NCBI GenBank assembly: GCA_963713545.1 | Contig: CAVQME010000001.1 | Span: forward strand, 130,809 to 194,808 | Length of the DNA: 64,000 bases | DNA from: an uncultured Actinomycetes bacterium | GTDB lineage: Bacteria > Actinomycetota > Thermoleophilia > RBG-16-64-13 | Direction of reading: 5' to 3' | Shown here: one piece after another, positions 24,692 through 58,768 of the stretch | How positions within the stretch are numbered: the stretch's first letter is position 1 | How the letters are laid out: each line of letters begins with the position of its first letter | Made by a program: the position numbers and the translations under genes | The notes under the pieces: generated by a model | The model's database searches: none | What the model saw: only the letters and a program-made list of their open reading frames with translations | What the model was told of the DNA's origin: nothing

Positions 24692-28447
<3,756 letters not shown>

Positions 28448-32242: not shown

Positions 32243-32294
32243 TACTTCACCACTCCCTAGTCATTAAACGCCCGTGCATGCTACCACAAACACA

Positions 32295-32371: not shown

Positions 32372-32376
32372 CGTCA

Positions 32377-32452
32377 TGGAGCCCCCACTCGGATTTGAAC
32401 CGAGGACCCCTTCCTTACCATGGAAGTGCTCTGCCAACTGAGCTATGGAGGC
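32377..32452 (-). tRNA. tRNA-Thr (GGT anticodon); 3' CCA is encoded
   Basis: Acceptor GCCTCCA/TGGGGGC, anticodon loop cttccatGGTaaggaag, T-loop GGTTCAAATCC. Confidence 0.8.
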
Positions 32453-32510
32453 CCGTCGCGCCGGCTCCCCGCCGGCCGCTACTCCGGCCACAGCCACCGG
32501 CGGATCGTGA

Positions 32511-32597
<87 letters not shown>

Positions 32598-37493: not shown

Positions 37494-37519
37494 GAGACCT
37501 TTCCTGGGTCGTTTTTCGA

Positions 37520-38359: not shown

Positions 38360-38363
38360 GATC

Positions 38364-41051: not shown

Positions 41052-41861
41052 ATGAGCACGACTACAGATGCGCGGGAAACCGACCCCTTCCAGGTCAGAG
41101 CGCTCGCAAGGGGGCTTTCGATCCTCTGCCTCTTCGATGTAGACCATCGCGAGTGGACCATCGACGAGATGGCCGAGCAGACCGGCCTCGTGCGCATGAC
41201 AGTCTATCGCATGGTGCGGACGCTCGAATCGATGGCCTTCCTTGTCCGCGACGCCACGACCAACCGTTACCGCCTCGGTCCGGCGGCGCTCGCCATGACC
41301 TACGTGTCGGACGATCAATCGGAGTTCATAGAGGCGGCCCGGCCGTACCTCGAGTCGCTCGTGCAGACGACCGGAGAATCGGTCACGCTGGCCGTTGAGG
41401 TGGACGGTTTCCCGGTATGCGTCGACATTGTCAACACGACACGCCCCTTCCGACGGAGAACGGCCCCGGGTCGTATCCTCGGCGATATCGCTTCGGTCCA
41501 CAGCAAGATCTTCGCCGCGCTCAGAGCCCCGGAAGAGCGGGAGACGATACTTACCAAGACCTATCCCCAGTTGACCCCGAACAGAGTCACCGATCCGAGG
41601 GAGCTGGCGCAGGAACTGGACCAGATCGCGAAGGAGAACGTGGCAGTGGACATCGAGGGGCTCTACCCGGGCATCTGTGCGGTGGGCGCCCCGGTGCGCG
41701 ATCAGTTGGGCGAGGTGATAGCCACCATCTCGGTCGTAGTCCCGTCAGGGCGGTTCGGAACGGCTGAGCGCGCCCTGTGTACCGAGGCCGTCAAAGCCTC
41801 TGCCGCCTCGTTTTCGGCTTACCTGGGCTGGAACCCAGCCGCTTCCGGACAGACGCGATGA
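41052..41861 (+). CDS. IclR-family transcriptional regulator
   Basis: 269 aa with an N-terminal wHTH (LSILCLFDVDHREWTIDEMAEQTGLVRMTVYRMVRTL) and a C-terminal effector domain. GGGGAG sits 4 nt upstream of the ATG. It lies between the two PHT-like operons and is paralogous to 55157..55981. Confidence 0.9.
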   Translation: MSTTTDARETDPFQVRALARGLSILCLFDVDHREWTIDEMAEQTGLVRMTVYRMVRTLESMAFLVRDATTNRYRLGPAALAMTYVSDDQSEFIEAARPYLESLVQTTGESVTLAVEVDGFPVCVDIVNTTRPFRRRTAPGRILGDIASVHSKIFAALRAPEERETILTKTYPQLTPNRVTDPRELAQELDQIAKENVAVDIEGLYPGICAVGAPVRDQLGEVIATISVVVPSGRFGTAERALCTEAVKASAASFSAYLGWNPAASGQTR

Positions 41862-41936: not shown

Positions 41937-42030
41937 CCGGGTCGTTAAGGTAGTAAGGGGGATGGGGGCCCTCGCAAGCGAACCGCTCCGAGTACGCTTA
42001 CCACTGACGAACGAAAGGACGACGATTGCG

Positions 42031-44658
42031 ATGACGGACGAGGGACGCAAGAAGGTCGATGTAAGCGTCGATAAGACAACGATCAAGAACTTGGCGATGG
42101 GCGGCCTGCTCGGTGGCGGCGGAGAGTGCTTCGTCGACGTCAAAGACGGCAAAGCCGTCCGGATCAGACCCTTCAAGTACGACTGGAAGTACGACTACGA
42201 CAAGCTGAACCCGTGGAAGATCGAACGTAACGGTGAGACCCTGGGTCCCCTGCCCAAAGCTCTGCCCGCGCCCTTCTCGCTCGCATATAAGAAGCGGACC
42301 TTCTCCCCGAACCGCATCAAGTTCCCCATGAAGCGGGTCGACTGGGACCCCGACGGCGAGAGGAACCCGCAGAACCGGGGCAAGAGCAAGTACAAGAGGA
42401 TCTCCTGGGACGAGGCCACCGACCTCATCGCAGCCGAGATCAGGCGGATCCACAAGGAATACGGGCCGCTCGCCATCCTTGCCCAGGGTGACGGTCACGG
42501 CGAGAACAAGACCATCCACACGCCCCACGGCCACCAGGCGCGGCTTCTCGACATGATGGGCGGCTTCACCCAGCAGGTCCGTAACCCGGACAGCTGGGAG
42601 GGCTGGTATTGGGGCGCCAAGCACGTCTGGGGCCAGGGCTTCCAGGGCATGATGTCTCCGGCCCAGAACCTCATCAAGGACATCTCCGAGAACTGCGACA
42701 TGGTCCTCAAATGGGGCTGCGACGAGGAGACCACCCCCTGGGGATTCACAGGGCAGTACGCCAGCCGGATCTCCCAATTCTGGACCCGGGCCGGCATCAA
42801 GCAAGTCTACATCTGCCCCGACCTCAACTATGCCGCCGCCGTTCACGGCGACAAATGGATCCCGGTGCTGCCCAACACCGACGCGGCTCTCCAGTTGGCC
42901 ATAATCTATGTGTGGCTCACCGAGGACACCTGGGACAAGGAGTACGTCGCCACCCACGCGGTCGGCATGGACAAGATCGCCGACTACGTCCTCGGTAACG
43001 ATGAAGAAGGCATTCCCAAAACCCCCGAGTGGGCTTCGAAGAGATGCGGGGTGCCCGAGTGGACCATCAAGGCCCTCGCCCGGGCGTTCGCCAAGAACAC
43101 CACGTCGATCATCCACTACTTCGGTGGCTCGGCTTTCAGGGGCCCGTACTCGCACGAACCGGGCCGGCTGGAATGCGTCCTCCTCGGCATGCAGGGCCTT
43201 GGCGGCCCGGGTGTCCACCAGTGCCAGATGACCTACTTCGGCATGCCGAGGGCGGAGGGACTAGGCAGCGTGCGCTTCTTCAACCCCGAACTGCCGGAGC
43301 GCCTCACGAAGCCCTGCTGGACCACGGTCCACGCCTGGGGCCCGCAGCTCATCCCCAAGACCCTCATCCAGGACGCCATCCTGAAGGCCCCGCTGGTCTT
43401 CTACGGCAGCGGCGGCCAGGAGTGCCAAACCGAGGAGCAGTTCGACCGCTACACCTATCCCATCGCGAAGGAAAAGGGCGGCGTCCCCATCCACATGATC
43501 TGGACCGACACGCCGTGCCGCATCACCTGCTGGAATCACGGCAACTGGACCATCGAGGCCATGAAGGACCCGAGCATCGAGTTCGTCCTCGCCCAGCACC
43601 CGTGGCTCGAGAACGACTGCCTCTACGCCGACATCATCCTACCGGCCAACACCACCCTCGAGGTCGAGGACATCGTCACCACGGTCCGGCAGGGCCCGCA
43701 TTTCGCAAGCGTCTCGATCCAGGAGCAGTCCGTCCTCCCCATCGGCGAGTCGAAGAGCGACTACGAGATCGTGCTGGCGGTCGCCGACAAACTGGGCATG
43801 ACCGAGGAGTTCACCGGCGGTCTCTCCACCCTCGACCTGCAGAAGCTGGTCTTCGACGCCATGAAGATGGACAAGCTCACCACCTGGGAGGACTTCTACG
43901 AGAAGAAGACCTACGTGTACGCGACCGCTCACGACTGGGAGCAGGACCCGCCCGGCTTCCGCCTGTTCTACGAGGACCCGAAAGCCAATCCACTCAAGAC
44001 CCCGAGCGGCCTTCTCGAGTTCTATTCAGAGCGTTTGGCGCAGCACTTCCCCGACGACAAAGAACGCCCGCCGTTCCCGAAGTGGGTCCCGAAGGGCATC
44101 ACGCACGACGAGGATCTTTCGAGCGAGCGGGCCGACATGTTCCCCTTGCTTCTCATGTCCAACCACCCGCGCTGGCGCACCCACGCTCAAGGCGACGATA
44201 TCAGCTGGGCCAGGGAGACTCCCACCGGCAAGGTCCTGGGCTTCGACGGCTACAGGTACGAGCCCATCTGGATCAACCCCATCGACGCCGAGGCCCGCTG
44301 CATCAAAGACGGCGACGTGGTCAAGATCTTCAACGAGAGGGGCATCGTGCTCGTCGGCGCGCGTGTGTGGGAGAGGATCAGGCCCGGCGTGGTCTACGTG
44401 GACCACGGTGCTCGCCATGATCCCCTGGTCCCGGGCAAGGTGGACCGGGGCGGGGCCATCAACACGATCGCTCCGAACGGGCTCACCTCAAAGAACGCGT
44501 GTGGCCAAGCCACCAGCGGCTACCTGGTCGACGTGCAGAAGGTCAAGAACGAGGAATGGGAAGCATGGCGTAGGGACTACCCCGAAGCTTTCGCCAGGGA
44601 ATACGACCAAGGCGCCGGACTGCGCTTCGACGCCTGGATCGAAGGAGGCAGGGACTAG
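42031..44658 (+). CDS. molybdopterin (bis-PGD) oxidoreductase large subunit, second pyrogallol-hydroxytransferase-like paralogue (cytoplasmic; no FeS motif, no Tat signal)
   Basis: The ORF-track start at 41962 has no usable RBS. The ATG at 42031 has AAGGA 13 nt upstream and gives MTDEGRKKVDV.... It shares DPDGERNPQNRGKSKYKRISWDEA, NPDSWEGWYWG and ILPANTTLE with 38364..40889. Confidence 0.85.
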   Translation: MTDEGRKKVDVSVDKTTIKNLAMGGLLGGGGECFVDVKDGKAVRIRPFKYDWKYDYDKLNPWKIERNGETLGPLPKALPAPFSLAYKKRTFSPNRIKFPMKRVDWDPDGERNPQNRGKSKYKRISWDEATDLIAAEIRRIHKEYGPLAILAQGDGHGENKTIHTPHGHQARLLDMMGGFTQQVRNPDSWEGWYWGAKHVWGQGFQGMMSPAQNLIKDISENCDMVLKWGCDEETTPWGFTGQYASRISQFWTRAGIKQVYICPDLNYAAAVHGDKWIPVLPNTDAALQLAIIYVWLTEDTWDKEYVATHAVGMDKIADYVLGNDEEGIPKTPEWASKRCGVPEWTIKALARAFAKNTTSIIHYFGGSAFRGPYSHEPGRLECVLLGMQGLGGPGVHQCQMTYFGMPRAEGLGSVRFFNPELPERLTKPCWTTVHAWGPQLIPKTLIQDAILKAPLVFYGSGGQECQTEEQFDRYTYPIAKEKGGVPIHMIWTDTPCRITCWNHGNWTIEAMKDPSIEFVLAQHPWLENDCLYADIILPANTTLEVEDIVTTVRQGPHFASVSIQEQSVLPIGESKSDYEIVLAVADKLGMTEEFTGGLSTLDLQKLVFDAMKMDKLTTWEDFYEKKTYVYATAHDWEQDPPGFRLFYEDPKANPLKTPSGLLEFYSERLAQHFPDDKERPPFPKWVPKGITHDEDLSSERADMFPLLLMSNHPRWRTHAQGDDISWARETPTGKVLGFDGYRYEPIWINPIDAEARCIKDGDVVKIFNERGIVLVGARVWERIRPGVVYVDHGARHDPLVPGKVDRGGAINTIAPNGLTSKNACGQATSGYLVDVQKVKNEEWEAWRRDYPEAFAREYDQGAGLRFDAWIEGGRD

Positions 44659-45477
44659 ATGAAGGTATTCGTTATTGACGTCGGCCTCTGCGTGGGCTGC
44701 TACGCCTGCCAGTTCGTCTGCAAGGACGAGCACGTCGGCAATGACTGGTCGCCGATCGCCAAGCCCCAGCCCGACACCGGCCAATTCTGGATGCGGTTGG
44801 ACGAACACATCAGAGGGACCGTGCCGAAAGTCGAGATGCACTACGTCCCTAACCCCTGCATGCACTGCGACGACCCGCCCTGCATCCCGCCCTGTCCGAT
44901 CGAGGGCGCCATCTACAAGCGAGACGACGGCTTGGTCGTCATCGACTCGGTGAAGTGCACCGGCTGCCGGTTGTGCGTCGACGCCTGCCCGTATGACGCC
45001 ATCTACTTCAATGACGACCTGAACCTCGCCCAGAAGTGCACCGGCTGTGCCCACCTGCTCGACGGCGGCGAGTGGAAGATCCCCAGGTGCGCAGATGCCT
45101 GCCCCACCCTTGCCATCAAGTTCGGCGAGGAGAGCGAATTCGCGGCCGAGATCGCCCAGGCCGAGGTGTTGAAGCCCGAGCTCGGAGCCAAGCCCCGGGT
45201 CTACTACTTGAACATTCCTAAGAGGTTCGTCGGCGGTACGGTGTACGACCCGGCTCAGAAAGAGGTGGTCATCGGCGCCACCTGTACCCTCACTGCAGTG
45301 AAGGGCGGCCCGGCCCTGACCGCCACCACCGACTACTTCGGTGATTTCTGGTTCAGGGGATTGGCCGACGGCACGTATAAGCTGACCATCTCGGCCAAGG
45401 GATTCGCCGATAAGACCTTGGCTGACATCAGCACTGAGAAGGACGTCAATCTCGGCGACATAGCGTTGACCAAGTAA
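44659..45477 (+). CDS. 4Fe-4S ferredoxin-type beta subunit (PHT-like) with a C-terminal beta-sandwich domain; translationally coupled (TAGATG) to the alpha subunit
   Basis: 272 aa. It is paralogous to 37520..38359 (GQFWM, YVPxPCxHC, AQKCTxCAH, NIPKRF, DVNLGDI). Confidence 0.85.
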   Translation: MKVFVIDVGLCVGCYACQFVCKDEHVGNDWSPIAKPQPDTGQFWMRLDEHIRGTVPKVEMHYVPNPCMHCDDPPCIPPCPIEGAIYKRDDGLVVIDSVKCTGCRLCVDACPYDAIYFNDDLNLAQKCTGCAHLLDGGEWKIPRCADACPTLAIKFGEESEFAAEIAQAEVLKPELGAKPRVYYLNIPKRFVGGTVYDPAQKEVVIGATCTLTAVKGGPALTATTDYFGDFWFRGLADGTYKLTISAKGFADKTLADISTEKDVNLGDIALTK

Positions 45478-46539: not shown

Positions 46540-47466
46540 CTATTCCTTTGGCGGATCGCCGTCGAACCCGCCGCTCGGATTCAAGAAGATCTTGCCGGGT
46601 TCGCCTGGCAGTGGCGTGAACCAATCGGGGCAGCTGTGCGGGAACAGCAGTCTCGCCTGCCAGTGGAGGGCGAAATCCTCAGCCTTCACGTCGCCATAGT
46701 ACTTGTTCATGCCCTCCACCAGCTCAGCGCCGTTCGTGGCGGTGCCGTAGACCTCGTCGTAGACATCCAGATAGCGGAGAGACCAATCGACACAGTCTGT
46801 GTAGGTGCGAGACGTTTCTTCCTGGACCTCCTCGAGGATTCGCAACTTGGCCTCGTCGTGATGCCCGGGGATGACTACCCGCGGGTCGAAATCCAGCAGC
46901 TGGCGGATCGAGGTCCTCCACCTCACCCGCCGCTCCACGTTACTCTCGATCGGCCACAGGTTGCAGTCGTGGAAGGCCACATCCGTCGCGCATGCGACTC
47001 CTATCGAGGGGACCCAGACCACGGAGTTGTTTATGCTGTCGCCCTCCCAGCCGTCTGAGAACAGCAGCTCCTCGCCCTCCAATTCGAGACGAGGATCATG
47101 GAGCGGCATGGGGATCGTCGTCTTGGTGGGGATGTCGGGACCGAAACGGTCGATGGCCCACATGTCGACTTTGTCACTTGAGGTGAACACCACGTCCCTG
47201 ACTACGCTGGGCAAGGCCACGATCTTGGCTTGAGGGAAGGCGTGTTGTAGCACGCCCAGGCCGAAGTGATGATCAGGGTGGAAGTGCGACACGTAGATAT
47301 GGGTGAGGTTCTTCCTCATGGGGATGATCTGGGCGACCATCTTGTGAGTGTCGCTGAGGAGCTGGGAGGCGTCTATCAGAATCGCGTCCTTCTCCCCGTA
47401 GAAGAGCGTGGAGTTGCTGTTGAAGCCCAGATAGCTATGCAGAAACACCTTGTATTTGAGTGGCAC
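46540..47466 (-). CDS. MBL-fold metallo-hydrolase
   Basis: 308 aa with the HxHxDH motif (SHFHPDHHFG). Confidence 0.75.
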   Translation of the reverse strand: MPLKYKVFLHSYLGFNSNSTLFYGEKDAILIDASQLLSDTHKMVAQIIPMRKNLTHIYVSHFHPDHHFGLGVLQHAFPQAKIVALPSVVRDVVFTSSDKVDMWAIDRFGPDIPTKTTIPMPLHDPRLELEGEELLFSDGWEGDSINNSVVWVPSIGVACATDVAFHDCNLWPIESNVERRVRWRTSIRQLLDFDPRVVIPGHHDEAKLRILEEVQEETSRTYTDCVDWSLRYLDVYDEVYGTATNGAELVEGMNKYYGDVKAEDFALHWQARLLFPHSCPDWFTPLPGEPGKIFLNPSGGFDGDPPKE

Positions 47467-48796: not shown

Positions 48797-50677
48797 TCAG
48801 ACCACCAGCGACGGCTCGATGCCCAGGTCCGCGAGCGTCGCCGGCAGGGCACCTCCCGTCTGTGGATCCCAACCCATAGCCTCGAAGTACCGGTCACGTA
48901 GCGCCTCGAACGGGATCTCCTGTCCCGTCGCCGGTCCGACACTGAGCGGCACCTCAAATCTCCTCGGAAGCCGGAAATCGGCCGGGCTGACCCCCTCGCG
49001 GTAGTTGAAGGCCTGCCGCAGGGTGAGGATGCGTTTGCCCGCCCTCAGGGCTTCGCTCCAGTCCATGTCCCAACCCGTGACCGGCCGCAAGAGCTCCACC
49101 AACGGAGGAGTGTAGAACTGGCCGTAGAGGGCGCAGAGACCGGCCGAGCTAAGCAGCTGCATGTATGCCGCGCCGCGGGCGTAGATATCGCCCTTCTTGT
49201 CGTAGTCTCCGTACATCTCACCCGAATCGCCTGGCTGCAGAAGCGGGTCGGACCCCAGCGCAGCCCCCTGCTCGAGCACACCCATGGCCTGCGGTCCCAG
49301 ATGCTGGGCGGGCTGGGCGTCGCCGATGTAGAACGTGCCGCTGCTGGGGGCCATGCGAGGATCGTGATAGGGGACCGCCCGGCCGGCCACGGTCATCTCG
49401 TACTCCTCGCTGCCCCGGCCTATCTGCGCAGCCGCCACCTTGGCGCCGTCGGCCAGCGCCGCGCCCAGGCCTTCCCGTCTCGCCATCTGCCCGATCAAGG
49501 CGACCAGGGCCTCGGCGTTGCCCCAGTTGAGTTCCAAGCCCCCTATGTCTTTCGAATCGAGGAGACCGTTCTCATAGCATTCCATCGCGAAGGAGACACT
49601 GTTCCCCGCACCCATGGTGTCAAGCCCATAGCGATTGCAGATCTCATTCGCCCGGATGACCGCCTGCAGGTTGTCGTTGCGGCAGCAGGCTCCGAGGGCC
49701 GCGAGGGTCTCGTATTCCGGCCGGTGAAGCTCGTCCTGGCTGGCGAACGGGCCGTCGTCGATCTTTATGAGAGCGCCACAGCGGACCGGGCAGGTGCTAC
49801 AACCATAGGCCTTGAGCTTGAAGACGTCCATATTGGCGCTGTCGAGATTGTTGCAGGTGGGCAGAGCATCGGTGCCGGTGGAGGCCCAGTTGTCCGCGGG
49901 GCAGTCGCCGATGGACAGGAGGAAGCTCGTGCCCCCGCCTGTGCCGACGGCCGTGAGCCCTTGGTGGAAGGGGCTGTTCTTGAGGGCCTCGCCGTAGTCC
50001 TTGTGGACCAGTTTCAGCCCCGCTTTGTCGGCCACGCCGACGCGAGCGCCCTTGCCGGCGCGGATTGCGATGGCCTTGAGCTTCTTGGAGCCCATGACCG
50101 CTCCCACCCCGGAACGGGCGGCGATCCTGCCCTTTTCGTTCACGATCCCGGCAAGAAGGGAAAGCTGCTCGCCCGACGGGCCGATGCAGGAGATCTTCCA
50201 ATCGCCAGAGTCTCCCAGCGCGGCCTGCAACAAATCGTCGGTCTCATAGGTATCTTTGCCCCAGAGCTGCCCGGCATCCATGAGCCGCGCCTGCCCCGCG
50301 TCGATGACCAGGCAAACCGGGCGCTCGGCCGCACCGGTGAAAAAGACTCCGTCGTAACCCGCGGCCTTGAGTTCCGGTCCGAAATAGCCTCCAGAGTTGG
50401 AGTCGGCCCACGCTCCTGTGAGAGGTGATTTCGCGGTGACCGTGTATCTGCCCCCACCGTAGACCCCCGTCGCGGTGAGCGGTCCGGTGGTGAAGGCCAG
50501 CAGGTTGTCCGGTCCCAGAGGATCGATACCTGCCTTGGTCCGCTCCATCGTTATCCTGACGCCAAGACCGGTGCCGCCGATCCAAGCGCGATAGAAACCC
50601 TCATCGGGTACTTCTTCGCGAATGGTGCCGGAGGTCAGGTCGACGAAGAGCAGCTTTCCCGCGTACCCATAAGCCAT
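48797..50677 (-). CDS. tungsten-type aldehyde:ferredoxin oxidoreductase (AOR family)
   Basis: The true start is MAYGYAGKLLFVDLTSG, preceded by GGGAGGTG. It has the AOR N-domain plus the Cys ligands of the 4Fe-4S and pterin domains. The 52-codon N-terminal extension in the ORF track is rejected. Confidence 0.88.
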   Translation of the reverse strand: MAYGYAGKLLFVDLTSGTIREEVPDEGFYRAWIGGTGLGVRITMERTKAGIDPLGPDNLLAFTTGPLTATGVYGGGRYTVTAKSPLTGAWADSNSGGYFGPELKAAGYDGVFFTGAAERPVCLVIDAGQARLMDAGQLWGKDTYETDDLLQAALGDSGDWKISCIGPSGEQLSLLAGIVNEKGRIAARSGVGAVMGSKKLKAIAIRAGKGARVGVADKAGLKLVHKDYGEALKNSPFHQGLTAVGTGGGTSFLLSIGDCPADNWASTGTDALPTCNNLDSANMDVFKLKAYGCSTCPVRCGALIKIDDGPFASQDELHRPEYETLAALGACCRNDNLQAVIRANEICNRYGLDTMGAGNSVSFAMECYENGLLDSKDIGGLELNWGNAEALVALIGQMARREGLGAALADGAKVAAAQIGRGSEEYEMTVAGRAVPYHDPRMAPSSGTFYIGDAQPAQHLGPQAMGVLEQGAALGSDPLLQPGDSGEMYGDYDKKGDIYARGAAYMQLLSSAGLCALYGQFYTPPLVELLRPVTGWDMDWSEALRAGKRILTLRQAFNYREGVSPADFRLPRRFEVPLSVGPATGQEIPFEALRDRYFEAMGWDPQTGGALPATLADLGIEPSLVV

Positions 50678-50854
50678 CAGAGAGCACCTCCCATCTAAGA
50701 CAGTGAGCCTGCCTACCCCCAGGAACCCGTGATACGCCCTCATCCTAACTGTTCCGCGAGCGCCGCGCAAACGCAGTGAGTGGTCGCAGACGTCTTCCCA
50801 TGCCCGTGGCGGTCGAGAATCACGCTCCCACAAACGGTATTGTGCGTAACGTTG

Positions 50855-50876
50855 TGCATTATATCGATATCACTAA
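50855..50876. promoter_or_regulatory. perfect 10-bp palindrome ATATCGATAT in the divergent AOR / Mo-enzyme BCA promoter region (candidate operator)
   Basis: cattATATCGATATcact within the only AT-rich patch (50.84-50.90 kb) of the region. The half-site is the same as at 40946-40957. Confidence 0.3.
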
Positions 50877-50996
50877 ATGTGCTTGTATGCTACAATCGGT
50901 CTGATTCGATCCGCAAGCGCATTGGGAGATCCCCCTCGAGCGCGTCTCGAGGCGGGGAGCCGCAGACGACAGCCTAGTAGGGAACAGGAGGGGCCG

Positions 50997-51773
50997 ATGG
51001 CGAGATGGGGAATGGTTATCAACCTCGCGAAGTGCGTCCGGTGCCATGCGTGTGTGGCCGCGTGCCGGATCGAGCACTTCCTACCGCTTAGAGTGACCTG
51101 GCCGAGACTCATCGCCCTCGAGACGGACGACGGCATCACCGTCGACGTGACCACGTACCCGGTCAGATGCAACCAGTGCAAAGAGGCGCCGTGTGTCGAC
51201 GTCTGCCCTACCGAAGCATCCCACAAGCGCGAGGATGGAATCGTCGCCATCGATTCCGACAAGTGCTTCGGTTGCCGGTACTGCGTCATCGCCTGTCCGT
51301 ACCAGAACCGCACGTACCTCTCTCGCAAGAGGAATCCGAACTACTTCCCCGAGCACGCGATGACCAGCTTTGAGAAGAAGGGGAAAGAGCTCTATCCGCA
51401 CCAGGTGGGAACCACACAGAAGTGCAACTTCTGCATGGAGCGCATCGACGCCGGCCTCGAAAAGGGCTTGACGCCGGGCATCGACCGTGAGGCCACGCCG
51501 GCGTGCGTGAACATCTGCCAGGCAAGGGCCCTCACCTTCGGCGACCTCGAAGATCCCAACAGCGAGGTTGCCAAACTGATAAGAGAGAAGGCCGGCTTCG
51601 TGCTGCACTCCGAGTACGGCACCGAACCGTCCGTCTACTACATCGACTACAAGCTGGGCGGCGCCCCCTCGAACAAGGCGCCCGTCGAAGCTCAGACCGG
51701 CAGCCATATTCAGCACCTGAGTACCGTTTACTCTGTGTCCAAGCCAAAACTGGCCAAGAAGAACGCCGAATAG
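50997..51773 (+). CDS. 4Fe-4S ferredoxin subunit (PsrB/NrfC/TtrB-like) with no Tat signal
   Basis: The start is MARWGMVINLAKCVRCHACVAACRIEH, with GGAGG 6 nt upstream. It has four Cys clusters. The ORF-track start at 50877 lacks an RBS. Confidence 0.85.
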   Translation: MARWGMVINLAKCVRCHACVAACRIEHFLPLRVTWPRLIALETDDGITVDVTTYPVRCNQCKEAPCVDVCPTEASHKREDGIVAIDSDKCFGCRYCVIACPYQNRTYLSRKRNPNYFPEHAMTSFEKKGKELYPHQVGTTQKCNFCMERIDAGLEKGLTPGIDREATPACVNICQARALTFGDLEDPNSEVAKLIREKAGFVLHSEYGTEPSVYYIDYKLGGAPSNKAPVEAQTGSHIQHLSTVYSVSKPKLAKKNAE

Positions 51774-51792
51774 AGGAAGGAGGGGAAGCCAC

Positions 51793-52764
51793 ATGAATGC
51801 AAGAACAGCCCGCCAATGGATGGTCACCCATGAGTGGATGATCAAGCCCATGGCTCAGACCGAGTGGATCGAGGGCAAGGGTCTGCTCGTCTGGCTGGCA
51901 GAGGTCTTCTCGGCCCTCGGCACCGGTCTCTATCTCGTGTCGCTCTTCTTCGCCCTGCAGGAGGACTTCGCGGTCACCGCCTTCTGGGCCGGCATCTTCG
52001 GCTGGATCATGATCGCGATCTTCAAGCTGCCCCTGCACCTGGCCTACCTCGGGAAGCCCTTGCGCTTCTGGAGGAGCTTCCCACCGTTCAGCAACGCGTG
52101 GAGGACCTCCTGGTTCGCCCGGGGCATCGTCTTCACCATGATCTTCCTTGCCTTCGGGGTTCTGCAGTTGATAATGCAGGGTCTGATCGCTTACGACGTG
52201 ACCGATGGCTCGGGCGTCGTGGCAGCCAACTACGTCTTCATGGTGCTCGCGGGCGTCTTCTGCGTCATGACCTCTGTCTATTGCGGATTCGCCATGAGCT
52301 ACTGCAAGAGCGTGCCCTTCTGGAACACGGGTCTATTGCCTATCGTGTTCCTTCTCATGGGCATAGCCGACGGCCTGGCGCTGATCATGGGAGTGGGGCT
52401 GGTCACAGGCGAAGATGTCATACCGGCGGCGGAGTCGGCGACTCGGATCATGCTGATCATCAACTCCCTGCTCATCCTCAGCTATCTGGTCAATGCGAAC
52501 TATCAGTCGACCACGGCGGAGTTGTCGGTGAAAGAGCTAATCCGGGGAAAACTGGCCTGGGTATTTTGGCTGGGGATCGTCGCCCTGGGCATAGTGATCC
52601 CGTTCGTGATATCGATCGCCAGCTATTTCTCCGGCTCGGAGGCAACCGCCGGACTCCTCGTTTTTGCGATCATCTGCCATACGATCGGGGCGTTCTCCCT
52701 TAAGTACGGCGTACTCAAGGTCGGCATCTACAGGCCCCTCCTTCCGAAAGCCCACGCCTACTAG
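51793..52764 (+). CDS. NrfD/PsrC-family polytopic membrane anchor subunit
   Basis: 323 aa with ~8 predicted TM helices, between the FeS and catalytic subunit genes. Confidence 0.8.
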   Translation: MNARTARQWMVTHEWMIKPMAQTEWIEGKGLLVWLAEVFSALGTGLYLVSLFFALQEDFAVTAFWAGIFGWIMIAIFKLPLHLAYLGKPLRFWRSFPPFSNAWRTSWFARGIVFTMIFLAFGVLQLIMQGLIAYDVTDGSGVVAANYVFMVLAGVFCVMTSVYCGFAMSYCKSVPFWNTGLLPIVFLLMGIADGLALIMGVGLVTGEDVIPAAESATRIMLIINSLLILSYLVNANYQSTTAELSVKELIRGKLAWVFWLGIVALGIVIPFVISIASYFSGSEATAGLLVFAIICHTIGAFSLKYGVLKVGIYRPLLPKAHAY

Positions 52765-52793
52765 AGCACCAGCTTGGTGCCGAGGAGATATTG

Positions 52794-55013
52794 ATGGGAA
52801 AGAGAGAAATCGTTTATTCAACGTGTAAGAGCTGCCACGGCGGCTGCGGCGTCAAGGTGACCAAGGAAGACGGGGTCGTCGTCCATATCGAGGGCAACCC
52901 CAACTCCCTCACCGGGGGCACGATGTGCTCCAAGGGCCTCTCGAGCATCCAGCACATCGATAACCCCTACCGAATCAAGTACCCCATGAAGCAGGTGGGA
53001 AAGAAGGGAACGGGCAAGTGGAAGAGGATCTCGTGGGACGAGGCTCTCGACACGATCGCCGACAAGATGAAGGCCGCCATCGCCGACCCGGGGCCGCAGA
53101 CCATCGCCATCTCTCAGGGCACAGGGCGCGGGTACAACCGCTACACCATGCGGCTGGCGCGTTCCCTGGGCACCGGCAACGCCATCACGCCGGGCTACGT
53201 GTGCCACAGCCCCCGCCTGGGACTTTACGCTCTGGTCACCGGATACGGGCGGCTCTACTGTGACTACCACGGCTGGGGCGGCGAGTTCCCGAAGACCCAG
53301 ATCATGTGGGCGAAGCAGCTGGAGATCAGCAGCGCCGACTCCGAGATGGGCTACTGGTTCATGCGTTCCGTGGACTACTGCAAGAACCTCATCATCATCG
53401 ACCCCCGAGCCAGTGCCTATGCCACCCGGGCGAGCCTCTGGATACAGCCGCGCCCGGGCACCGACTGCGCCCTCGCTTTGGGCATGATGAACGTTATCGT
53501 CGAAGAGGAGCTCTGGGACAAGGAGTTCGTCGACAACTGGACCTACGGCTTCGACGAGCTGCGCGAGCGAGTCAAGGACTTCACCCCTGAGAAGGTCTCC
53601 GACATCTGCTGGATCCCCAAGGAGCAGGTCATCGAAGCCGCCCGGATGTGGGCCGTCGACACGCCCGGCTGCATCCAGGTCGGCAGCTCGCTCGAGCGGC
53701 AGGCCAACTGTGGCCACACCCTTCGAGCCATCACCTGCTTAATGGGGCTCGCCGGCAACATCGAGCGCCCGGGCAGCATGATCAGCTGGGTGCTCCCGGA
53801 CACCGGCCTCATCGAGGACTTCAACCTCGAACTGCCCATCACCGACGAGATGAAGGCGAACATCATCGGGGGCGACCGGTTCAAGATGGGCGCCACCCGC
53901 ACGTGCAACCCCGACACGATGGTCAAGAAGCTCCTTGCAGGCGATGCGCCCATCAAGGTGTGGTTCAGCGTCGGCGGGCAGCAGATCGTCCATATGGCCA
54001 ATACGAATGAGGTCGTTGCGGCCATCGAAAAGGTCGAGTTCATGTCGCACACCGATCTCTTCATGGGCCCGATGGCCGAAGCGGCCGACATCGTCCTCCC
54101 GGCCGCCCACTGGCTGGAACTTGACGACGTCTACGACATGCACCCGCGCTTCATGATCGAAGCTCACAACAAGGTGGTCGATCCGCCCGGGGAGGCCAAG
54201 TCCGACGCCTGGATCTTCAACGAGGTCGGGAGGCGAGTCGTGCCCGACAAGTGGTGGCCCACAGTCGAAGACATGCTCGACTACCAACTGAGAAGGGGCG
54301 AAGCCCCGGACGGCGGCCCGCTGAAGTGGAAGGACTTCAGCGAGAAGCTCGTGAGCGGCTGCTGGGGCCCCGATCAGGTGTATTACAAGTACAAGACCGA
54401 TTTCTGGAGAGAGGGCGGCGGCTTCCCCACCCCGTCCGGCAAGTTCGAGTTCAAGTCCCAGCACCTAGAGTCCCTCGGGTACGACGGGCTGCCGGTCTTC
54501 ACGGAACCGGGCGAGAGCCCCTACTCCACCCCCGAGTTGTTCAAGGAATACCCCATCGTGATGAGCAGCGGCTACCGCCAGCCGTTCTACTTCCTCGGGC
54601 AGTACCGCAACATCCCCTGGCTGCGTAGCTTCATGGAGTTCCCGACCTGCCAGCTCCACCCGGAGACAGCCGCGCTGTACGGCGTCGAGGACGGCGATAT
54701 CATCTGGATCGAGTCGCCACGCGGGAGGATCCGCCAGAAGCTGCGGACGTTCCCTGGTATCAAGAAGGACGTCCTCATGGCGACCGCCAACTGCTTCTAT
54801 CCGGAGGAACCTGCCGAGGGCTACCACGGGGTGTTCATCTCCAACCCGAACGTGCTCACCAGCAACGACCACCTCGATCCGATGTACGGCTCGCCAGACC
54901 TCACCTGCCTGATATGCAAGGTCTACAAGGCGAAGGACGAAGAGTTGCGGGAAGAGGTCTTTCGCAGTGAGGAGTACGGCTTCGTTCCAACCAGTATGAT
55001 GCAGGACGTCTAG
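52794..55013 (+). CDS. molybdopterin (bis-PGD) oxidoreductase catalytic subunit with an N-terminal 4Fe-4S Cys motif and no Tat signal
   Basis: ~739 aa. It begins MGKREIVYSTCKSCHGGCGVKV...GGTMCSKG (Cx2Cx3C...C) directly after the Met, so there is no room for a twin-arginine leader. GAGGAG sits 6 nt upstream of the ATG. TTG 52791 is an alternative start. Confidence 0.85.
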   Translation: MGKREIVYSTCKSCHGGCGVKVTKEDGVVVHIEGNPNSLTGGTMCSKGLSSIQHIDNPYRIKYPMKQVGKKGTGKWKRISWDEALDTIADKMKAAIADPGPQTIAISQGTGRGYNRYTMRLARSLGTGNAITPGYVCHSPRLGLYALVTGYGRLYCDYHGWGGEFPKTQIMWAKQLEISSADSEMGYWFMRSVDYCKNLIIIDPRASAYATRASLWIQPRPGTDCALALGMMNVIVEEELWDKEFVDNWTYGFDELRERVKDFTPEKVSDICWIPKEQVIEAARMWAVDTPGCIQVGSSLERQANCGHTLRAITCLMGLAGNIERPGSMISWVLPDTGLIEDFNLELPITDEMKANIIGGDRFKMGATRTCNPDTMVKKLLAGDAPIKVWFSVGGQQIVHMANTNEVVAAIEKVEFMSHTDLFMGPMAEAADIVLPAAHWLELDDVYDMHPRFMIEAHNKVVDPPGEAKSDAWIFNEVGRRVVPDKWWPTVEDMLDYQLRRGEAPDGGPLKWKDFSEKLVSGCWGPDQVYYKYKTDFWREGGGFPTPSGKFEFKSQHLESLGYDGLPVFTEPGESPYSTPELFKEYPIVMSSGYRQPFYFLGQYRNIPWLRSFMEFPTCQLHPETAALYGVEDGDIIWIESPRGRIRQKLRTFPGIKKDVLMATANCFYPEEPAEGYHGVFISNPNVLTSNDHLDPMYGSPDLTCLICKVYKAKDEELREEVFRSEEYGFVPTSMMQDV

Positions 55014-55063: not shown

Positions 55064-55101
55064 CCCCCGGGGCCGGCCCTGGCCGGCCCCGGGGGTTTTC
55101 T
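55064..55101 (+). terminator. rho-independent terminator after the third Mo-enzyme operon
   Basis: CCCCCGGGGCCGGCC-ct-GGCCGGCCCCGGGGG followed by TTTTCT. Confidence 0.7.
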
Positions 55102-55156
55102 ATTGCGCTCGGATCGGTCGCCGCTTCGGCACGACGCGGCTGTGGCTCCCCCCGCG

Positions 55157-55981
55157 CTATGGCTCCCTGTGCGAGTAGCCCAGGAAGGCGGAAAGAGAGG
55201 CGGCGGCGTTCTTCGTGGCCTGAACGAAGCGCGGCCTGTCCTCATCGCCGAACCGTCCGGTAGGGACGATGAGCGATATGGACGCGATCACCTTGCCCAG
55301 CTGGTCGCGCACGGGCGCGGCCACGGCGCAGGTGCCAAGGTTCCGTTCCTCAAGATCGAAAGCTATCCCCTCCCGCTTCACGTGCTCCAACTCGGCGGAC
55401 AGCGCTACCGAGTCGGTGATCGTGTGGGGCGTCGTCCTTGTACGTGGCTGAGCAAGGATCTCTACTTTCTCCGCCTCGGACTTGAAGGCGGCGAACACCT
55501 TGCCGTGAGCGTTGGCCGTGTCGCCGATGATACGGCCTTGAGCGACCTCCCTCCGGAACGGGCGGGCGGTATCGACGGTGTCGACGCTGACCGCCACACC
55601 GTCCACTTCCACCGCCAGGGTGGCCGACTCGCCTGTCTCCACCGCCAGGTCGCGCAAGTACGGTCGCGCGATGGCGACCAGTTCGGAGTAGGACTCCGCG
55701 ATATACGTGGTCGCCAGGAGCGCCGGGCCCAGATGATAGCGGCTGGTCACCGGATCGCGCACCAGATAGCTGGCCGCTTCCATGGTGCGGATCATGCGGT
55801 AGGCCGTCATCCTGGGAAGGCCGGCGCCCTCCGCGATCGCGTCCAGGGTCCACTCTCGGTTCTCGGCGTCGAACAGCCCCAGCACCGTGAGCCCTTTGGA
55901 CAGGGCCCGGACCAGAAAGGCGCCTTCCCCGGCGGTCGCCGGCTTCTCGTGAAGCTCAGAACTCACTCGTGGTCTTGGCAT
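55157..55981 (-). CDS. IclR-family transcriptional regulator (paralogue of 41052..41861)
   Basis: 274 aa. It shares an extensive identical block with IclR1 (ATLAVEVDG...VDTARPFRR...APVRDQLG.VIA.IS..VP.GRF). Confidence 0.88.
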   Translation of the reverse strand: MPRPRVSSELHEKPATAGEGAFLVRALSKGLTVLGLFDAENREWTLDAIAEGAGLPRMTAYRMIRTMEAASYLVRDPVTSRYHLGPALLATTYIAESYSELVAIARPYLRDLAVETGESATLAVEVDGVAVSVDTVDTARPFRREVAQGRIIGDTANAHGKVFAAFKSEAEKVEILAQPRTRTTPHTITDSVALSAELEHVKREGIAFDLEERNLGTCAVAAPVRDQLGKVIASISLIVPTGRFGDEDRPRFVQATKNAAASLSAFLGYSHREP

Positions 55982-56044: not shown

Positions 56045-56818
56045 TCACGCAAACGCCGTCATCCCGCCGTCCGGATACAGGATCGTACCGGTCACGAAGT
56101 CTGACGCCTTAGATGCCAGGAAGATCGCGGGGCCGACCAGATCGGCGACGGTACCCATGCGGTTCATCGGGATGTTGACCAGCATCTTCTCGTAGCGGTC
56201 CGCTTCCCGCTTGACACGCTCCTCCGTCATGGGAGTGATGGTGATGACGGGAGCGATGGCGTTGACCAGCACCTTCTTCGACGCGAGCTCGACGGCCAAC
56301 TGCTTCGTGATCATGTCCACAGCACCCTTGCTGGCGCAGTAGGCAAGGTTGCCACCCAATGCCGCCCGCACCCCCCGGATGGACGAAAGGTTGATGATCT
56401 TGCCGCCCCCCTGCTCGACCATGTGAGCCGCGAAGTTCTTGCAGCAGATCATCACTCCCCGGACGTTCACGGCGAAGAGCCTGTCCCAGTCCTCCACCGG
56501 GAACTCGGTGGCAGGGGCCTTGACATTGAAGCCCTGGGCGTTGACAAGAATGTGGACACGACCCATGTCGGCCACCGTCTTCGCCACCAGCTCCTGGACG
56601 TTGCTCTCCTGTCCGGTATCGACCGAATAGGACCTGACAGTCTGGCCGGTAGCGGCTTCGATCCCCTTGACAGCGTTGTCCAGGCCGGTCAGGTTGACGT
56701 CGGCGATGGCCACCTGGGCGCCGTAGCGCACGAAACCTTCCGCGAGTCCGCTCCCGATACCACCGGCGCCGCCAACGATCACAGCGTTCTTGCCTGCCAA
56801 GGAGAACAGGTCGTCCAT
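56045..56818 (-). CDS. short-chain dehydrogenase/reductase (SDR)
   Basis: 257 aa. It has GKNAVIVGGAGGIGSG, NAQG, and the YxxxK active site (LAYCASKGA). Confidence 0.85.
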   Translation of the reverse strand: MDDLFSLAGKNAVIVGGAGGIGSGLAEGFVRYGAQVAIADVNLTGLDNAVKGIEAATGQTVRSYSVDTGQESNVQELVAKTVADMGRVHILVNAQGFNVKAPATEFPVEDWDRLFAVNVRGVMICCKNFAAHMVEQGGGKIINLSSIRGVRAALGGNLAYCASKGAVDMITKQLAVELASKKVLVNAIAPVITITPMTEERVKREADRYEKMLVNIPMNRMGTVADLVGPAIFLASKASDFVTGTILYPDGGMTAFA

Positions 56819-56876
56819 GAGAAGCCGTCCTTTCCTTTCAGCGTTTCCTGTCGGATCTGCCTGTGAGCCCAGGCCC

Positions 56877-57731
56877 TCAGCGCTTGACGATGCCGAGTAT
56901 CTGCCTGGCCTCGTCGGGTGTCGCGGGCTCTATGTTCAGTTCCTGGGCGATCCGCGCCGACCGCTCCACAAGCTGCGCGTTGCTCTCGGCGAGCACGCCC
57001 TTCGAGTAGTAAATGTTGTCTTCGAGCCCGACCCGCACGCATCCGCCCATGATCATTGCCATCGTGGTGACGGGGAGTTGAGCCGCCGAGGTGGCGGTGC
57101 AGTTGAAATAGCAGTTCTCTGGTAGGAACTGGTACATGGACACCAGCGTCTCCGGGTTGGCCTCGATGGCGCCCTGGTACATCATCCCCAGCACAAAGTT
57201 GACGTAGTACGGAGGCTTGAGCAGCTCCTTCTTGATCAGGTTGTTCACGTCCCGATACATACTCTGGGAATAGCATTCCATCTCGGGCTTGATCTCGAGT
57301 TCCTTCATCTTGGCCGCCCAAGCCTCGATGTCCTTGGTCATATTGGAGAACGGGGTACCGGCGAAGGCCCCAGTCTGACGCATGAGGGTGCCCATGTTGA
57401 GAGAGGCCGATTCCGGTTTGGCGTCGAGGCAGCGCACGCGCTCCTCGATGGTGAGGTTCGCGCCGCCCCCGGTGGAGAACTGCACGATGATCTCGCTGCA
57501 CTTGCCTCTGACGGCGGCCATGATCTCTTCGAACTTCTCCTTGGTGCCGGTGGGCTGGCCCTTCTCGTCGCGGGCGTGGATGTGCACGATGGCGGCCCCG
57601 GCGTTGTAGCACTCGAGCGCGGCCTGGGCGATCTCGTCCGGCTGCTCGGGGACATTGGGGTTCATCTCCTTGTTGACGAAGGCGCCGTTCAGAGAGGCGG
57701 TGATGATGACTTTGCCTGCAGGTAGCTTCAT
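56877..57731 (-). CDS. BKACE-family beta-keto acid cleavage enzyme (3-keto-5-aminohexanoate cleavage enzyme-like, DUF849)
   Basis: 284 aa. It begins KVIITASLNGAF and contains AAIVHIHARD, characteristic of Kce/BKACE TIM-barrel Zn enzymes. Confidence 0.75.
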   Translation of the reverse strand: MKLPAGKVIITASLNGAFVNKEMNPNVPEQPDEIAQAALECYNAGAAIVHIHARDEKGQPTGTKEKFEEIMAAVRGKCSEIIVQFSTGGGANLTIEERVRCLDAKPESASLNMGTLMRQTGAFAGTPFSNMTKDIEAWAAKMKELEIKPEMECYSQSMYRDVNNLIKKELLKPPYYVNFVLGMMYQGAIEANPETLVSMYQFLPENCYFNCTATSAAQLPVTTMAMIMGGCVRVGLEDNIYYSKGVLAESNAQLVERSARIAQELNIEPATPDEARQILGIVKR

Positions 57732-57760
57732 GGTGGTGACTCCTCTGACTCCCGTGTCGC

Positions 57761-58768
57761 TTATATCCGTTTGTAGATGAGGTCTTTGACGTCCTCGAAC
57801 ACCTTGATCAACGCGGCGTCCCGCTCGTGCAGGACCTGCTCCAAGGGACGGTCGCTGTAGTCGAAGAAACCCTTGCCGGTCTTGACTCCCAGCTCTCCTC
57901 GCTCCATGAGCTCCACCAGGCTCTTCGGCTGGTTGTCGATCGGGGGCTCGATGAAGTTGGGGTTCTGCAGGTTGCCATAGCTGAGGTCGACCCCGGTGAA
58001 GTCGTACCTCTGCACGAAACCTAGAACCATCGCCCGGGGGATGATGCTGGCTTTGACGGCCAGATCGAGCTGGTCGGCGGTCATGTAGCCGTTGTCGAGC
58101 AGGAAGAAGATCTCGCGGCCGATGATCCGCAGGAAGCGGTTGATGCAGAACCCGGGGACGAATCTCTCCAGCACTGTGGGGACCCGGTCGACCTTCTTGA
58201 GCAGGTCGACTACGAAGTCCACCGTTTCCTGGCTGGTCTCCGGCCCCTTGACGACCTCGACCAGAGGGACGATGTGAGGGGGAGCGAACCAGTGGGCTAT
58301 CACGGTCTGAGGCAACCGGCCGGCCGGCATCACCTCGTAGATGTTCAGGTAGGAGGTGTTGCTGGTGAGGATGGTGCGTTCAGGGCAGACAGCGTCCAGT
58401 TCCTCGTAGAGCACCTTCTTGGCGTCCAGCTTCTCGGCGATGCTCTCGATCACGAAATCCGCCTCTTTGCCGGCTTCTTCCACCGACTGGGTGGTCGTGA
58501 TGCGGGCAAGGATGCCGGGGACCGCACCTTCGGCGAGGAGCCCGCACTCGACGAAAGTGGCGAAATTCGCTTTGGCCACGGACATGCCCTTGTCGAGGGT
58601 CTCCGCTTTGCGCGAGTACATCGTCACATCGTACCCGGCGGTGGCGAACACTTGCGCCAGGCCCGGCCCCATGGTGCCTGCCCCAAAGATCGCCACTTTC
58701 TTGACGTCTTCGATTTTCACGTGATGCCCCTTGTGTCGTTCGTTCTGGTGGGAGACAGATGTCGTCAC
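57761..58768 (-). CDS. 3-hydroxyacyl-CoA dehydrogenase family protein (carnitine/3-hydroxybutyryl-CoA dehydrogenase-like)
   Basis: 335 aa. It has the Rossmann motif VAIFGAGTMGPGLAQV, and the HADH C-terminal domain is present. The real start may be slightly internal. Confidence 0.78.
   Translation of the reverse strand: MTTSVSHQNERHKGHHVKIEDVKKVAIFGAGTMGPGLAQVFATAGYDVTMYSRKAETLDKGMSVAKANFATFVECGLLAEGAVPGILARITTTQSVEEAGKEADFVIESIAEKLDAKKVLYEELDAVCPERTILTSNTSYLNIYEVMPAGRLPQTVIAHWFAPPHIVPLVEVVKGPETSQETVDFVVDLLKKVDRVPTVLERFVPGFCINRFLRIIGREIFFLLDNGYMTADQLDLAVKASIIPRAMVLGFVQRYDFTGVDLSYGNLQNPNFIEPPIDNQPKSLVELMERGELGVKTGKGFFDYSDRPLEQVLHERDAALIKVFEDVKDLIYKRI

Follow-up and report, generated by a model that had tools for sequence, protein, structure and literature searches.

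Molybdoenzymes anchored in the membrane by NrfD-type proteins are almost always drawn facing outward. Within the NrfD family, one face of the anchor always bears both the FeS subunit and the quinone site, and SoeC was the single member expected to be inverted (PMC8076601). As to the catalytic subunits, the catechol dehydroxylases of gut bacteria form the sister group of acetylene hydratase (PMC7028382, PMC11574389), and the clade that comprises both has been described as broad and environmental. Here we analyzed a three-gene locus located at positions 50997-55013 (+ strand) of a 64,000-nucleotide stretch of DNA, referred to as the window, from an uncultured Actinomycetes bacterium (assembly GCA_963713545.1, contig CAVQME010000001.1), and its genes were named B, C and A in the order of transcription. 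We propose, with a probability of about 0.6, that B-C-A encodes an inward-facing, quinone-coupled enzyme that transfers oxygen atoms on a cytoplasmic aromatic intermediate, which would add a conserved inward-facing family from another catalytic clade to the NrfD-anchored molybdoenzymes. We computed what the subunits are, their cofactor motifs, the lack of export signals, the topology of the anchor (as a prediction), conservation and gene neighborhoods; the quinone coupling, the class of substrate and the direction of electron flow we infer.

The three subunits and their predicted orientation

The locus contains the following genes.
50997-51773, + strand: B, electron-transfer subunit of 258 amino acids, a four-cluster ferredoxin (Fer4_11 and related 4Fe-4S dicluster families)
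51793-52764, + strand: C, eight-helix NrfD/PsrC-type membrane anchor of 323 amino acids (NrfD PF03916, E 5.8e-17)
52794-55013, + strand: A, catalytic subunit of the Mo/W-bis-MGD type (MGD, molybdopterin guanine dinucleotide), 739 amino acids (Molybdop_Fe4S4 PF04879, Molybdopterin PF00384, Molydop_binding PF01568)

The genes are separated by 19 and 29 bases, and each of them follows a Shine-Dalgarno sequence, which is AGGAGG 8 nucleotides 5' of ATG 50997 for B, GGAGG 5' of ATG 51793 for C and GAGGAG 6 nucleotides 5' of ATG 52794 for A. Pfam domains and coordinates agree with the order FeS subunit, NrfD-type anchor, catalytic subunit given in the original prediction, in which the locus was likened to ttrBCA operons. 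This likeness holds for the gene order and fails for the family assignment. The best match of A in the Protein Data Bank (PDB) was acetylene hydratase (2e7z; 291 bits, E 1.5e-85, nearly full length), followed by FdhF (174 bits) and PsrA (173 bits), and the score of A against the TtrA model was 60.9 bits, the cut-off being 1750. Its top NCBIfam match was the PhsA model (265.7 bits, cut-off 694), the ArrA model gave 88 bits (cut-off 1600), and A reached none of the curated NCBIfam equivalog cut-offs. Likewise, the best NCBIfam matches of B, i.e. DsrO, ArrB, QrcC, NrfC and TtrB, were every one under cut-off (126 bits against 416 for TtrB), and its best PDB matches were ArrB (6cz7_B) and PsrB (2vpw_B). 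Membership of the Ttr, Psr, Arr or Dms families was rejected, all of these models being under cut-off. Judged from its sequence, A should rather be regarded as an acetylene-hydratase/catechol-dehydroxylase-like catalytic subunit sitting on a Psr/Pad-type FeS-anchor module, and the Ttr/Psr label should be dropped.

The cofactor sites were compared with those of acetylene hydratase and followed through a set of 85 related loci (including the L-numbered ones mentioned below), to which all counts per locus refer. A carries an N-terminal [4Fe-4S] motif, CxxCHxxC...C, and in the alignment with 2e7z its four cysteines for this cluster (FS0) and the lysine after the fourth cysteine match, and Cys137 of A stands opposite the tungsten ligand Cys141. 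The catalytic Asp13 of acetylene hydratase, located beside the second cluster cysteine, is replaced in A by His15, and a histidine was found in all 77 orthologs that cover the position. Cys11, Cys14, Cys18, Cys45, Lys47, Cys137 and His15 were conserved in every covering ortholog (77-78 of 78), invariant columns make up 29% of A, and the 16 cysteines that form the four Cys groups of B were all invariant in 78 orthologs. Because the FS0 cysteines, Lys47, Cys137, His15 and the 16 cysteines of B have been kept, A appears to be a redox-competent catalytic subunit rather than a hydratase or a cofactor-less scaffold. Identity with acetylene hydratase itself was rejected in view of the Asp to His exchange and of the presence of redox partners. 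With an FS0-containing bis-MGD subunit, a four-cluster ferredoxin and an anchor of the NrfD/PsrC fold, B-C-A has the composition of a complex iron-sulfur molybdoenzyme (CISM). C is assumed to be heme-free from its family membership.

The original prediction had stated that both soluble subunits lack a twin-arginine translocation (Tat) leader, and that an upstream start adding an RRxF motif to either of them would speak against a cytoplasmic location. When the starts were called again, TTG 52791 and ATG 52794 were the only in-frame starts of A, and an in-frame stop is located 30 codons upstream, inside C. The frame of B stays open for 40 more codons, up to ATG 50877, and this extension adds '...GSRRRQPSREQEGP', which includes SRRRQPS. 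Nevertheless, the 40-codon extension contains no hydrophobic stretch ahead of the first cluster cysteine, no ribosome-binding site was found for ATG 50877, and the upstream in-frame start is absent from most of the 81 B orthologs, where the extension has no match. The extension was thus rejected as a Tat leader for its lack of a hydrophobic core (h-region), of a ribosome-binding site and of a counterpart in the orthologs. A orthologs always start 8-12 residues before the first cysteine, with the pattern M..(R/K)..(V/I)..(S/T)TCKSCHGGCG, and B orthologs always start with M(A)RWGMV; the few long possible extensions among them are readings of other frames through gene C. Within the first 50 residues, A reached a maximal 12-residue Kyte-Doolittle score of 0.39 and B one of 1.21, compared with 1.57-2.02 for NrfC, HybA and DmsA, Tat substrates of E. 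coli whose RRxF motifs are plainly visible. By hydropathy, neither an N-terminal h-region nor a membrane-spanning segment was present in A or B. Re-called starts, hydropathy and the leaderless starts common to some 80 orthologous loci that represent at least five phyla are all in agreement with the predicted lack of leaders, and no upstream start that adds an RRxF leader was detected, either here or in the approximately 80 orthologs. On the evidence of these start regions, neither A nor B can carry a Tat leader.

The orientation of the anchor was then predicted from its charged residues. C has eight hydrophobic helices, with a predicted N-in/C-in topology; their boundaries were set by hand and projected onto the family alignment (72 distinct orthologs, 38-96% identical to the window protein), since the automatic caller had split helix 5 and returned nine segments. 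In the window protein, Lys and Arg are concentrated in the N terminus, loops 2, 4 and 6 and the C terminus, and are nearly missing from loops 1, 3, 5 and 7. The mean Lys plus Arg count was 16.1 on the former side versus 1.2 on the latter, with the same sign in 72 of 72 orthologs. The same count gave the opposite sign for the E. coli controls NrfD (4 versus 8) and DmsC (2 versus 5), and the ten-helix HybB behaved as expected for a core with one extra helix on each side. When the C family profile was compared with E. coli NrfD by hhalign, helices 4-8 of one paired with helices 4-8 of the other with 98.2% probability, in an alignment that includes the loop-4 motif S..KS.PF.N; the comparisons with E. 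coli DmsC and HybB were not significant, and NrfD is therefore the sole control of the register. As helices 4-8 are aligned and the signs of the Lys plus Arg counts are opposed, C and NrfD seem to share their register and to have opposite predicted orientations.

Conservation falls on the same side as the positive charges: 22 of 96 columns on the Lys/Arg-rich face of C were at least 95% identical, versus 2 of 36 on the opposite face. Because a phmmer search of C against PDB sequences gave no match, a comparison of folds was used, and an AlphaFold model of C (pTM 0.78) had ActC (6lod_C/8k9e_C) and PsrC (2vpw_C) as its best Foldseek matches. If C is inverted by the positive-inside rule and the FeS subunit and quinone site share a face, the docking face should be cytoplasmic. 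The orientation of C is thus predicted to be inverted with respect to NrfD, PsrC and DmsC, the conserved, Lys/Arg-rich docking face being in the cytoplasm, which is what the topology check proposed in the original prediction had to establish. Both the leaderless starts and the anchor topology support the cytoplasm-facing complex on an NrfD-type anchor that had been put forward there. Lys78 and His82 of C were invariant in a 25-sequence alignment and are inferred candidates for residues of the quinone site.

Distribution and gene neighborhoods

The family is widespread among uncultured bacteria of soil and sediment, and in the species-representative genomes of GTDB it is represented in 163 stretches. 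The best 80 of these 163 were examined, and all of them come from metagenome-assembled genomes (MAGs), the closest one being that of an uncultured Actinomycetes bacterium (96%). Their hosts belong to Thermoleophilia and other Actinomycetota, Dehalococcoidia, Desulfatiglandales (Desulfatiglans), Acidobacteriota and SAR324, and include one Betaproteobacteria MAG. In an index of 5.8 billion proteins, at least 120 matches to A (67-94% identity, 649-752 amino acids) were found under the names of Thermoleophilia, Dehalococcoidia, Desulfobacteraceae and 'Proteobacteria' MAGs. The family is tight, with 67-96% identity across phyla. In an exhaustive search of 50% representatives it formed one cluster, the next full-length relative, P0241, being 52% identical and the rest 40% at most, and at least 150 clusters of this library outscored acetylene hydratase in the comparison with A.

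The B-C-A arrangement is intact in 81 of the 85 loci, whereas no B and/or C homolog was detected in the other four. Immediately upstream of the P0241 gene lies a C-like gene (34% identity across 170 residues), and four relatives at 38-39% identity (P0243, P0247, P0249 and P0251), which lie on short contigs, showed neither an FeS/NrfD neighbor nor a pad cluster. Within the relatives sampled, only the A family and its sister P0241 appear to be coupled to B and C. Among the 150 nearest clusters most proteins are leaderless, and about 12 have clear Tat leaders. One relative, P0279 (983 amino acids, 36% identity), is a natural fusion, in which an N-terminal region resembling a four-cluster ferredoxin (MVIDLQRCVGCDGCTVAC...) is followed by an A-like domain, an arrangement of B-like and A-like parts that recalls ActB.

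Around B-C-A, the window contains the following features.
37520-40889, - strand: AhtL1/AhtS1, close homolog of pyrogallol hydroxytransferase (large subunit 38364-40889; 877 bits to 4v4c_A)
41052-41861: IclR regulator between AhtL1/AhtS1 and AhtL2/AhtS2
41962-45477, + strand: AhtL2/AhtS2, large and small subunits of a divergent enzyme resembling pyrogallol hydroxytransferase (large, PF21423 and Molybdopterin; small, Fer4_11 and CarboxypepD_reg)
48797-50677, - strand: tungsten-type aldehyde:ferredoxin oxidoreductase (AOR; AFOR_N E 1e-72, AFOR_C E 3e-98)
50678-50996: intergenic region of 319 bp between the divergent AOR and B genes, presumed to be regulatory
55077-55104, + strand: terminator-like hairpin with a T-rich tail 3' of A (a pattern match from a consensus scan whose terminator and promoter matches were no more numerous than in shuffled sequence)
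55157-55981, - strand: IclR-family regulator convergent with A (HTH_IclR and IclR_C)
56045-58768, - strand: genes for a short-chain dehydrogenase/reductase (SDR), a BKACE protein and a 3-hydroxyacyl-CoA dehydrogenase (HACD) (Pfam)

The most frequent partner of B-C-A outside the operon is AhtL2/AhtS2, whose orthologs (53-75% identity) lie within 8 kb in about 27 of the 85 loci, from Thermoleophilia, Acidobacteriota, Desulfatiglans, SAR324 and others. In the Desulfobacterota loci L002 and L003 the genes form one operon, B-C-A-AhtL-AhtS. AhtL2 (41962-44658) gave 433 bits against the Pelobacter pyrogallol hydroxytransferase (4v4c_A), AhtS1 combines FeS and CarboxypepD_reg domains as AhtS2 does, and both AhtL1 and AhtL2 lack a Tat leader. 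A had been counted as the third molybdenum enzyme of the window, and there are indeed two more, encoded at 38364-40889 and 41962-44658.

The divergent tungsten AOR noted in the original prediction is real according to its AFOR_N and AFOR_C domains; its probable start is at 50677, from which it is transcribed away from B, and an AOR gene adjoins B-C-A in 17 loci, nearly all of them from Actinomycetota. The consensus scan gave no sigma-70-like promoter match in the divergent region (50678-50996), which contains an imperfect 19-nucleotide palindrome, CGGTATTGTGCGTAACGTT / AACGTTGTGCATTATATCG, at 50835-50866 that could be a candidate operator for one of the IclR regulators. An IclR regulator is present in 38 loci, and that encoded at 55157-55981 scored 126 bits, under the cut-off, against the PcaR/PcaU subfamily model.

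The SDR, BKACE and HACD genes co-occur with B-C-A in 13-22 loci. These are the families of the phloroglucinol pathway enzymes PGR (phloroglucinol reductase), TAL (triacetate acetoacetate-lyase) and TfD (triacetate-forming dehydrogenase), respectively (PMC10470551). The gene at 46540-47466 (- strand) was counted with those at 56045-58768 (- strand) among the phloroglucinol-pathway context genes. No dihydrophloroglucinol cyclohydrolase of the 'cyclase' family was found among the window open reading frames (ORFs) scanned. A protein of the metallo-beta-lactamase fold is co-conserved in eight loci and, as a speculation, might be a ring-opening enzyme.

The neighborhoods differ from lineage to lineage. 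Actinomycetota loci add IclR, SDR, BKACE and HACD genes and often AOR, AlaDH-like and IorA-like genes and one for an ADP-forming acyl-CoA synthetase (ACD). Dehalococcoidia loci have LuxR, URO-D-like, carboxylesterase, zinc-type alcohol dehydrogenase and UbiA genes. URO-D-family, carboxylesterase and LuxR genes occur near B-C-A in L064-L071, L077, L081, L082, L085 and others; the URO-D-family proteins are possibly methyltransferases of O-demethylase systems, and together with the carboxylesterases they hint that the upstream substrates could be phenolics with methoxy or ester groups. In the Dehalococcoidia-type loci L004/L005 (12232-18311), L054, L056, L057 and L059-L061, a FixC/FixX-like flavoprotein-ferredoxin pair follows B-C-A. 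Close downstream come genes for a UbiA prenyltransferase, two radical-SAM proteins and a UbiE-type methyltransferase, as in L004, a set that, beside a quinone-type anchor, looks like genes of menaquinone biosynthesis by the futalosine route. Genes for sulfur oxidation or reduction were found in none of the B-C-A neighborhoods. The theme that the neighborhoods share is anoxic aromatic and phenolic catabolism, with a hint of menaquinone biosynthesis in one lineage.

Farther to the left in the window, four tRNA genes (Trp, Met, Thr and Tyr; 31991-32595, - strand) precede the aromatic-catabolism region of about 30 kb, whose left edge is formed by genes for a LarA-like protein of the lactate racemase family (34117-35397, - strand), a B3/4-domain protein (35529-36245, + strand) and a thiolase (36294-37733, - strand). 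To the left of the tRNA cluster lie core translation and transcription genes, with EF-G at 17209-19338 and very long ORFs at 20357-28447. The mechanically called ORFs around the tRNA cluster have a low third-position GC content and are probably spurious.

Proposed function and alternatives

According to the reading proposed here, A and B would assemble in the cytoplasm and not leave it, being docked on the cytoplasmic face of a C that is upside-down with respect to NrfD, PsrC and DmsC. The quinone site would lie at the cytoplasmic end of the first four-helix bundle of C (helices 1-4), and electrons would pass between this site and a Cys-ligated Mo or W through the four clusters of B and the FS0 cluster of A. 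By analogy with the nearest relatives, the enzyme would catalyze a two-electron transfer of an oxygen atom, with an aromatic intermediate of the cytoplasm as substrate. This reaction might run as the reductive removal of a ring hydroxyl of the catechol or pyrogallol type with menaquinol as donor, as in the gut catechol dehydroxylases, or as a water-dependent hydroxylation with a quinone as acceptor, as in PadBCD, and by analogy the two directions are about equally plausible. The role of the enzyme would be in an anoxic catabolism of polyphenols and hydroxybenzenes that converges on phloroglucinol. With its quinone site on the N-side, the enzyme alone would build no redox loop, and energy coupling, if any, would come from proton channels in C or from a partner quinone reductase or oxidase.

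A further possibility, which we regard as quite improbable, is that B-C-A and AhtL2/AhtS2 together form a membrane-wired 'split transhydroxylase'. One of the two Mo enzymes would hydroxylate a polyhydroxybenzene with water and the other would reductively remove a neighboring hydroxyl, the two electrons being exchanged via the four-cluster subunit and the inverted NrfD-type anchor or via the menaquinone pool. If true, this would amount to an O2-free cytoplasmic isomerization of inert phenolics to phloroglucinol in uncultured soil and sediment bacteria, for example of hydroxyhydroquinone or pyrogallol via resorcinol or tetrahydroxybenzene, and to a second class of NrfD complexes that face the N-side, one with organic substrates.

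Several points weigh against the proposed oxygen-atom-transfer enzyme. The topology of C is a prediction, made with the positive-inside rule after a home-made segmentation by hydropathy, and the E. coli controls NrfD and DmsC are less strongly biased than C. The serine of the second transmembrane helix, strictly conserved according to PMC8076601, is not evident in helix 2 of C, which could therefore be a pure anchor. A was set beside the catechol dehydroxylases, PadB and SoeA by description and not by sequence placement. The family has no characterized member, and every locus is MAG-derived. The substrate was guessed from the neighborhood alone, the neighborhoods vary between phyla, and an AhtL gene within 8 kb is missing from most Dehalococcoidia loci.

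The same inward-facing architecture could serve another reaction. PadBCD (EC 1.17.5.1; Thauera and Aromatoleum), a Mo-Fe-S enzyme bound to the membrane, takes part in the anaerobic catabolism of aromatics. From the work of Rhee and Fuchs in 1999 and its IUBMB entry, it is said to use a quinone as acceptor and to insert oxygen derived from water. Its substrate is a CoA ester, and its active site should therefore be cytoplasmic. AOR has a role in the phenylalanine route of Aromatoleum. B-C-A would then be an arylacetyl-CoA:quinone oxidoreductase of the PadBCD type, which oxidizes the alpha carbon of phenylacetyl-CoA-like thioesters and leaves ring hydroxyls alone. Many B orthologs are indeed named phenylacetyl-CoA:acceptor oxidoreductase 27-kDa subunit (PadC) in IMG, and the Actinomycetota loci with AOR (17), an IorA-like 2-oxoacid:ferredoxin oxidoreductase (13), an ADP-forming acyl-CoA synthetase (10) and an AlaDH-like protein hold a gene set that parallels AOR, PadEFGHI and PadJ of that phenylalanine route (PMC5109826). 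However, the IMG name of A is the generic COG0243 and not padB, Desulfococcus multivorans has been reported with padCD paralogs in the absence of padB, the Pad gene order is Mo subunit, FeS subunit, anchor, and the Desulfobacterota, Acidobacteriota and many Thermoleophilia loci have AhtL/AhtS instead of the Ior/ACD/AOR set. A tblastn search of plasmid sequences for PadB and PadD gave only generic homologs of at most 36% identity, and no PadB or PadD model was among the NCBIfam matches. The PadC label in IMG and the padCD paralogs of Desulfococcus without padB suggest that the FeS-anchor module is shared with Pad and that the catalytic subunit differs. We consider the PadBCD-type reaction unlikely.

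The catalytic role of A itself may also be questioned, since some NrfD-containing complexes have lost the Mo-bisPGD cofactor (PMC10100899). A would then be a cofactor-less scaffold comparable to QrcB or ActB, in a quinone-interacting electron/proton device that serves, for instance, AhtL/AhtS. Partial matches to the QrcB and QrcC models and the co-operonic second Mo enzyme of the Desulfobacterota agree with this idea. Against it, the FS0 cysteines, Lys47 and the cysteine that stands opposite the metal ligand have been kept in all orthologs covering them, the Molybdopterin and Molydop_binding domains both score well, and 67-96% identity across phyla together with 29% invariant columns fits a constrained catalytic site, which makes a scaffold very improbable.

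An inward-facing enzyme for sulfur compounds, akin to Soe, bacterial Sre, Psr or Phs, is also very improbable. In its favor, the top NCBIfam match of A is PhsA (266 bits), PsrA and PsrB are among the PDB matches, and the textbook examples of NrfD complexes that face inward are SoeABC and bacterial SreABC. Nevertheless, the sulfur-enzyme models are far under their cut-offs, acetylene hydratase scores far above PsrA, the gene order is unlike soeABC, and the neighborhoods hold aromatic and phenolic catabolic genes instead of sulfur metabolism.

An outward-facing complex, with C in the usual NrfD orientation and with A and B exported by hitch-hiking or by an unrecognized signal, is extremely unlikely, because in known systems of this kind a leaderless PsrB-/DmsB-type subunit normally hitch-hikes on a catalytic subunit carrying the leader, while here neither subunit has one in about 80 loci, no Tat-type protein is conserved in the neighborhood, the charge bias of C is extreme and opposite to that of NrfD and DmsC, and the conserved docking-type loops are on its Lys/Arg-rich side.

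With a quinone site on the N-side, the proposed oxygen-atom-transfer enzyme bears on how NrfD-type anchors link the chemistry of quinones to the membrane potential in such a case. Since it lies beside transhydroxylase and phloroglucinol-pathway genes, B-C-A is a candidate for a missing O2-independent step of polyphenol turnover in anoxic soils, a turnover with which the 'enzyme latch' debate is concerned, and its three genes form a defined target that can be expressed and assayed.

Comparison with known systems

As SoeABC, bacterial SreABC and PadBCD are already known, the inward-facing principle is not new; what is new is a conserved, multi-phylum family with an organic-substrate context. The original prediction had cited SoeABC as the best-known precedent, and it is not the only one, PadBCD being another. 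A third is bacterial SreABC (PMC10100899).

TtrBCA and PsrABC share with B-C-A the three-subunit CISM plan, and the ttrBCA order (FeS subunit, anchor, catalytic subunit) is that found in 81 of the 85 loci; unlike B-C-A, their catalytic dimers are Tat-exported and outward-facing. SoeABC and bacterial SreABC resemble B-C-A more closely in that their catalytic and FeS subunits have no Tat leader and their NrfD-like anchor is expected to be inverted, which places the quinone site on the N-side (PMC8076601, PMC10100899). In contrast to B-C-A, SoeABC acts on an inorganic sulfur substrate in a sulfur-oxidation context, has the gene order A-B-C and belongs to a separate catalytic lineage, and by its sequence matches A is unlikely to fall within the SoeA/bacterial SreA lineage. 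PadBCD differs from B-C-A in gene order; only B carries the padC name in IMG, and the likeness to PadB and PadD is one of description. BtdS was considered as a relative of C and rejected, because BtdS is a DoxX protein (resorcinol-regulator paper).

Acetylene hydratase of Pelobacter acetylenicus (2e7z) is, like A, a leaderless cytoplasmic protein of about 730 amino acids with an N-terminal [4Fe-4S] motif, but it is a monomer that catalyzes a non-redox hydration without a ferredoxin or a membrane partner. The gut catechol dehydroxylases (Dadh, Hcdh and Cadh of Eggerthella; Dodh and Cldh of Gordonibacter) use hydroxylated aromatics as electron acceptors (PMC7028382, PMC11574389). Those of the Eggerthella type combine, as B-C-A does, a bis-MGD subunit, a four-cluster FeS subunit and a membrane anchor, but they have Tat leaders and face outward, whereas those of the Gordonibacter type lack Tat leaders, as is the case here, and are soluble two-subunit enzymes without FS0 or an anchor (PMC7028382, PMC11574389). 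Compared by description, B-C-A thus mixes the two dehydroxylase architectures, since it has no Tat leader and yet combines FS0, a four-cluster subunit and a membrane anchor.

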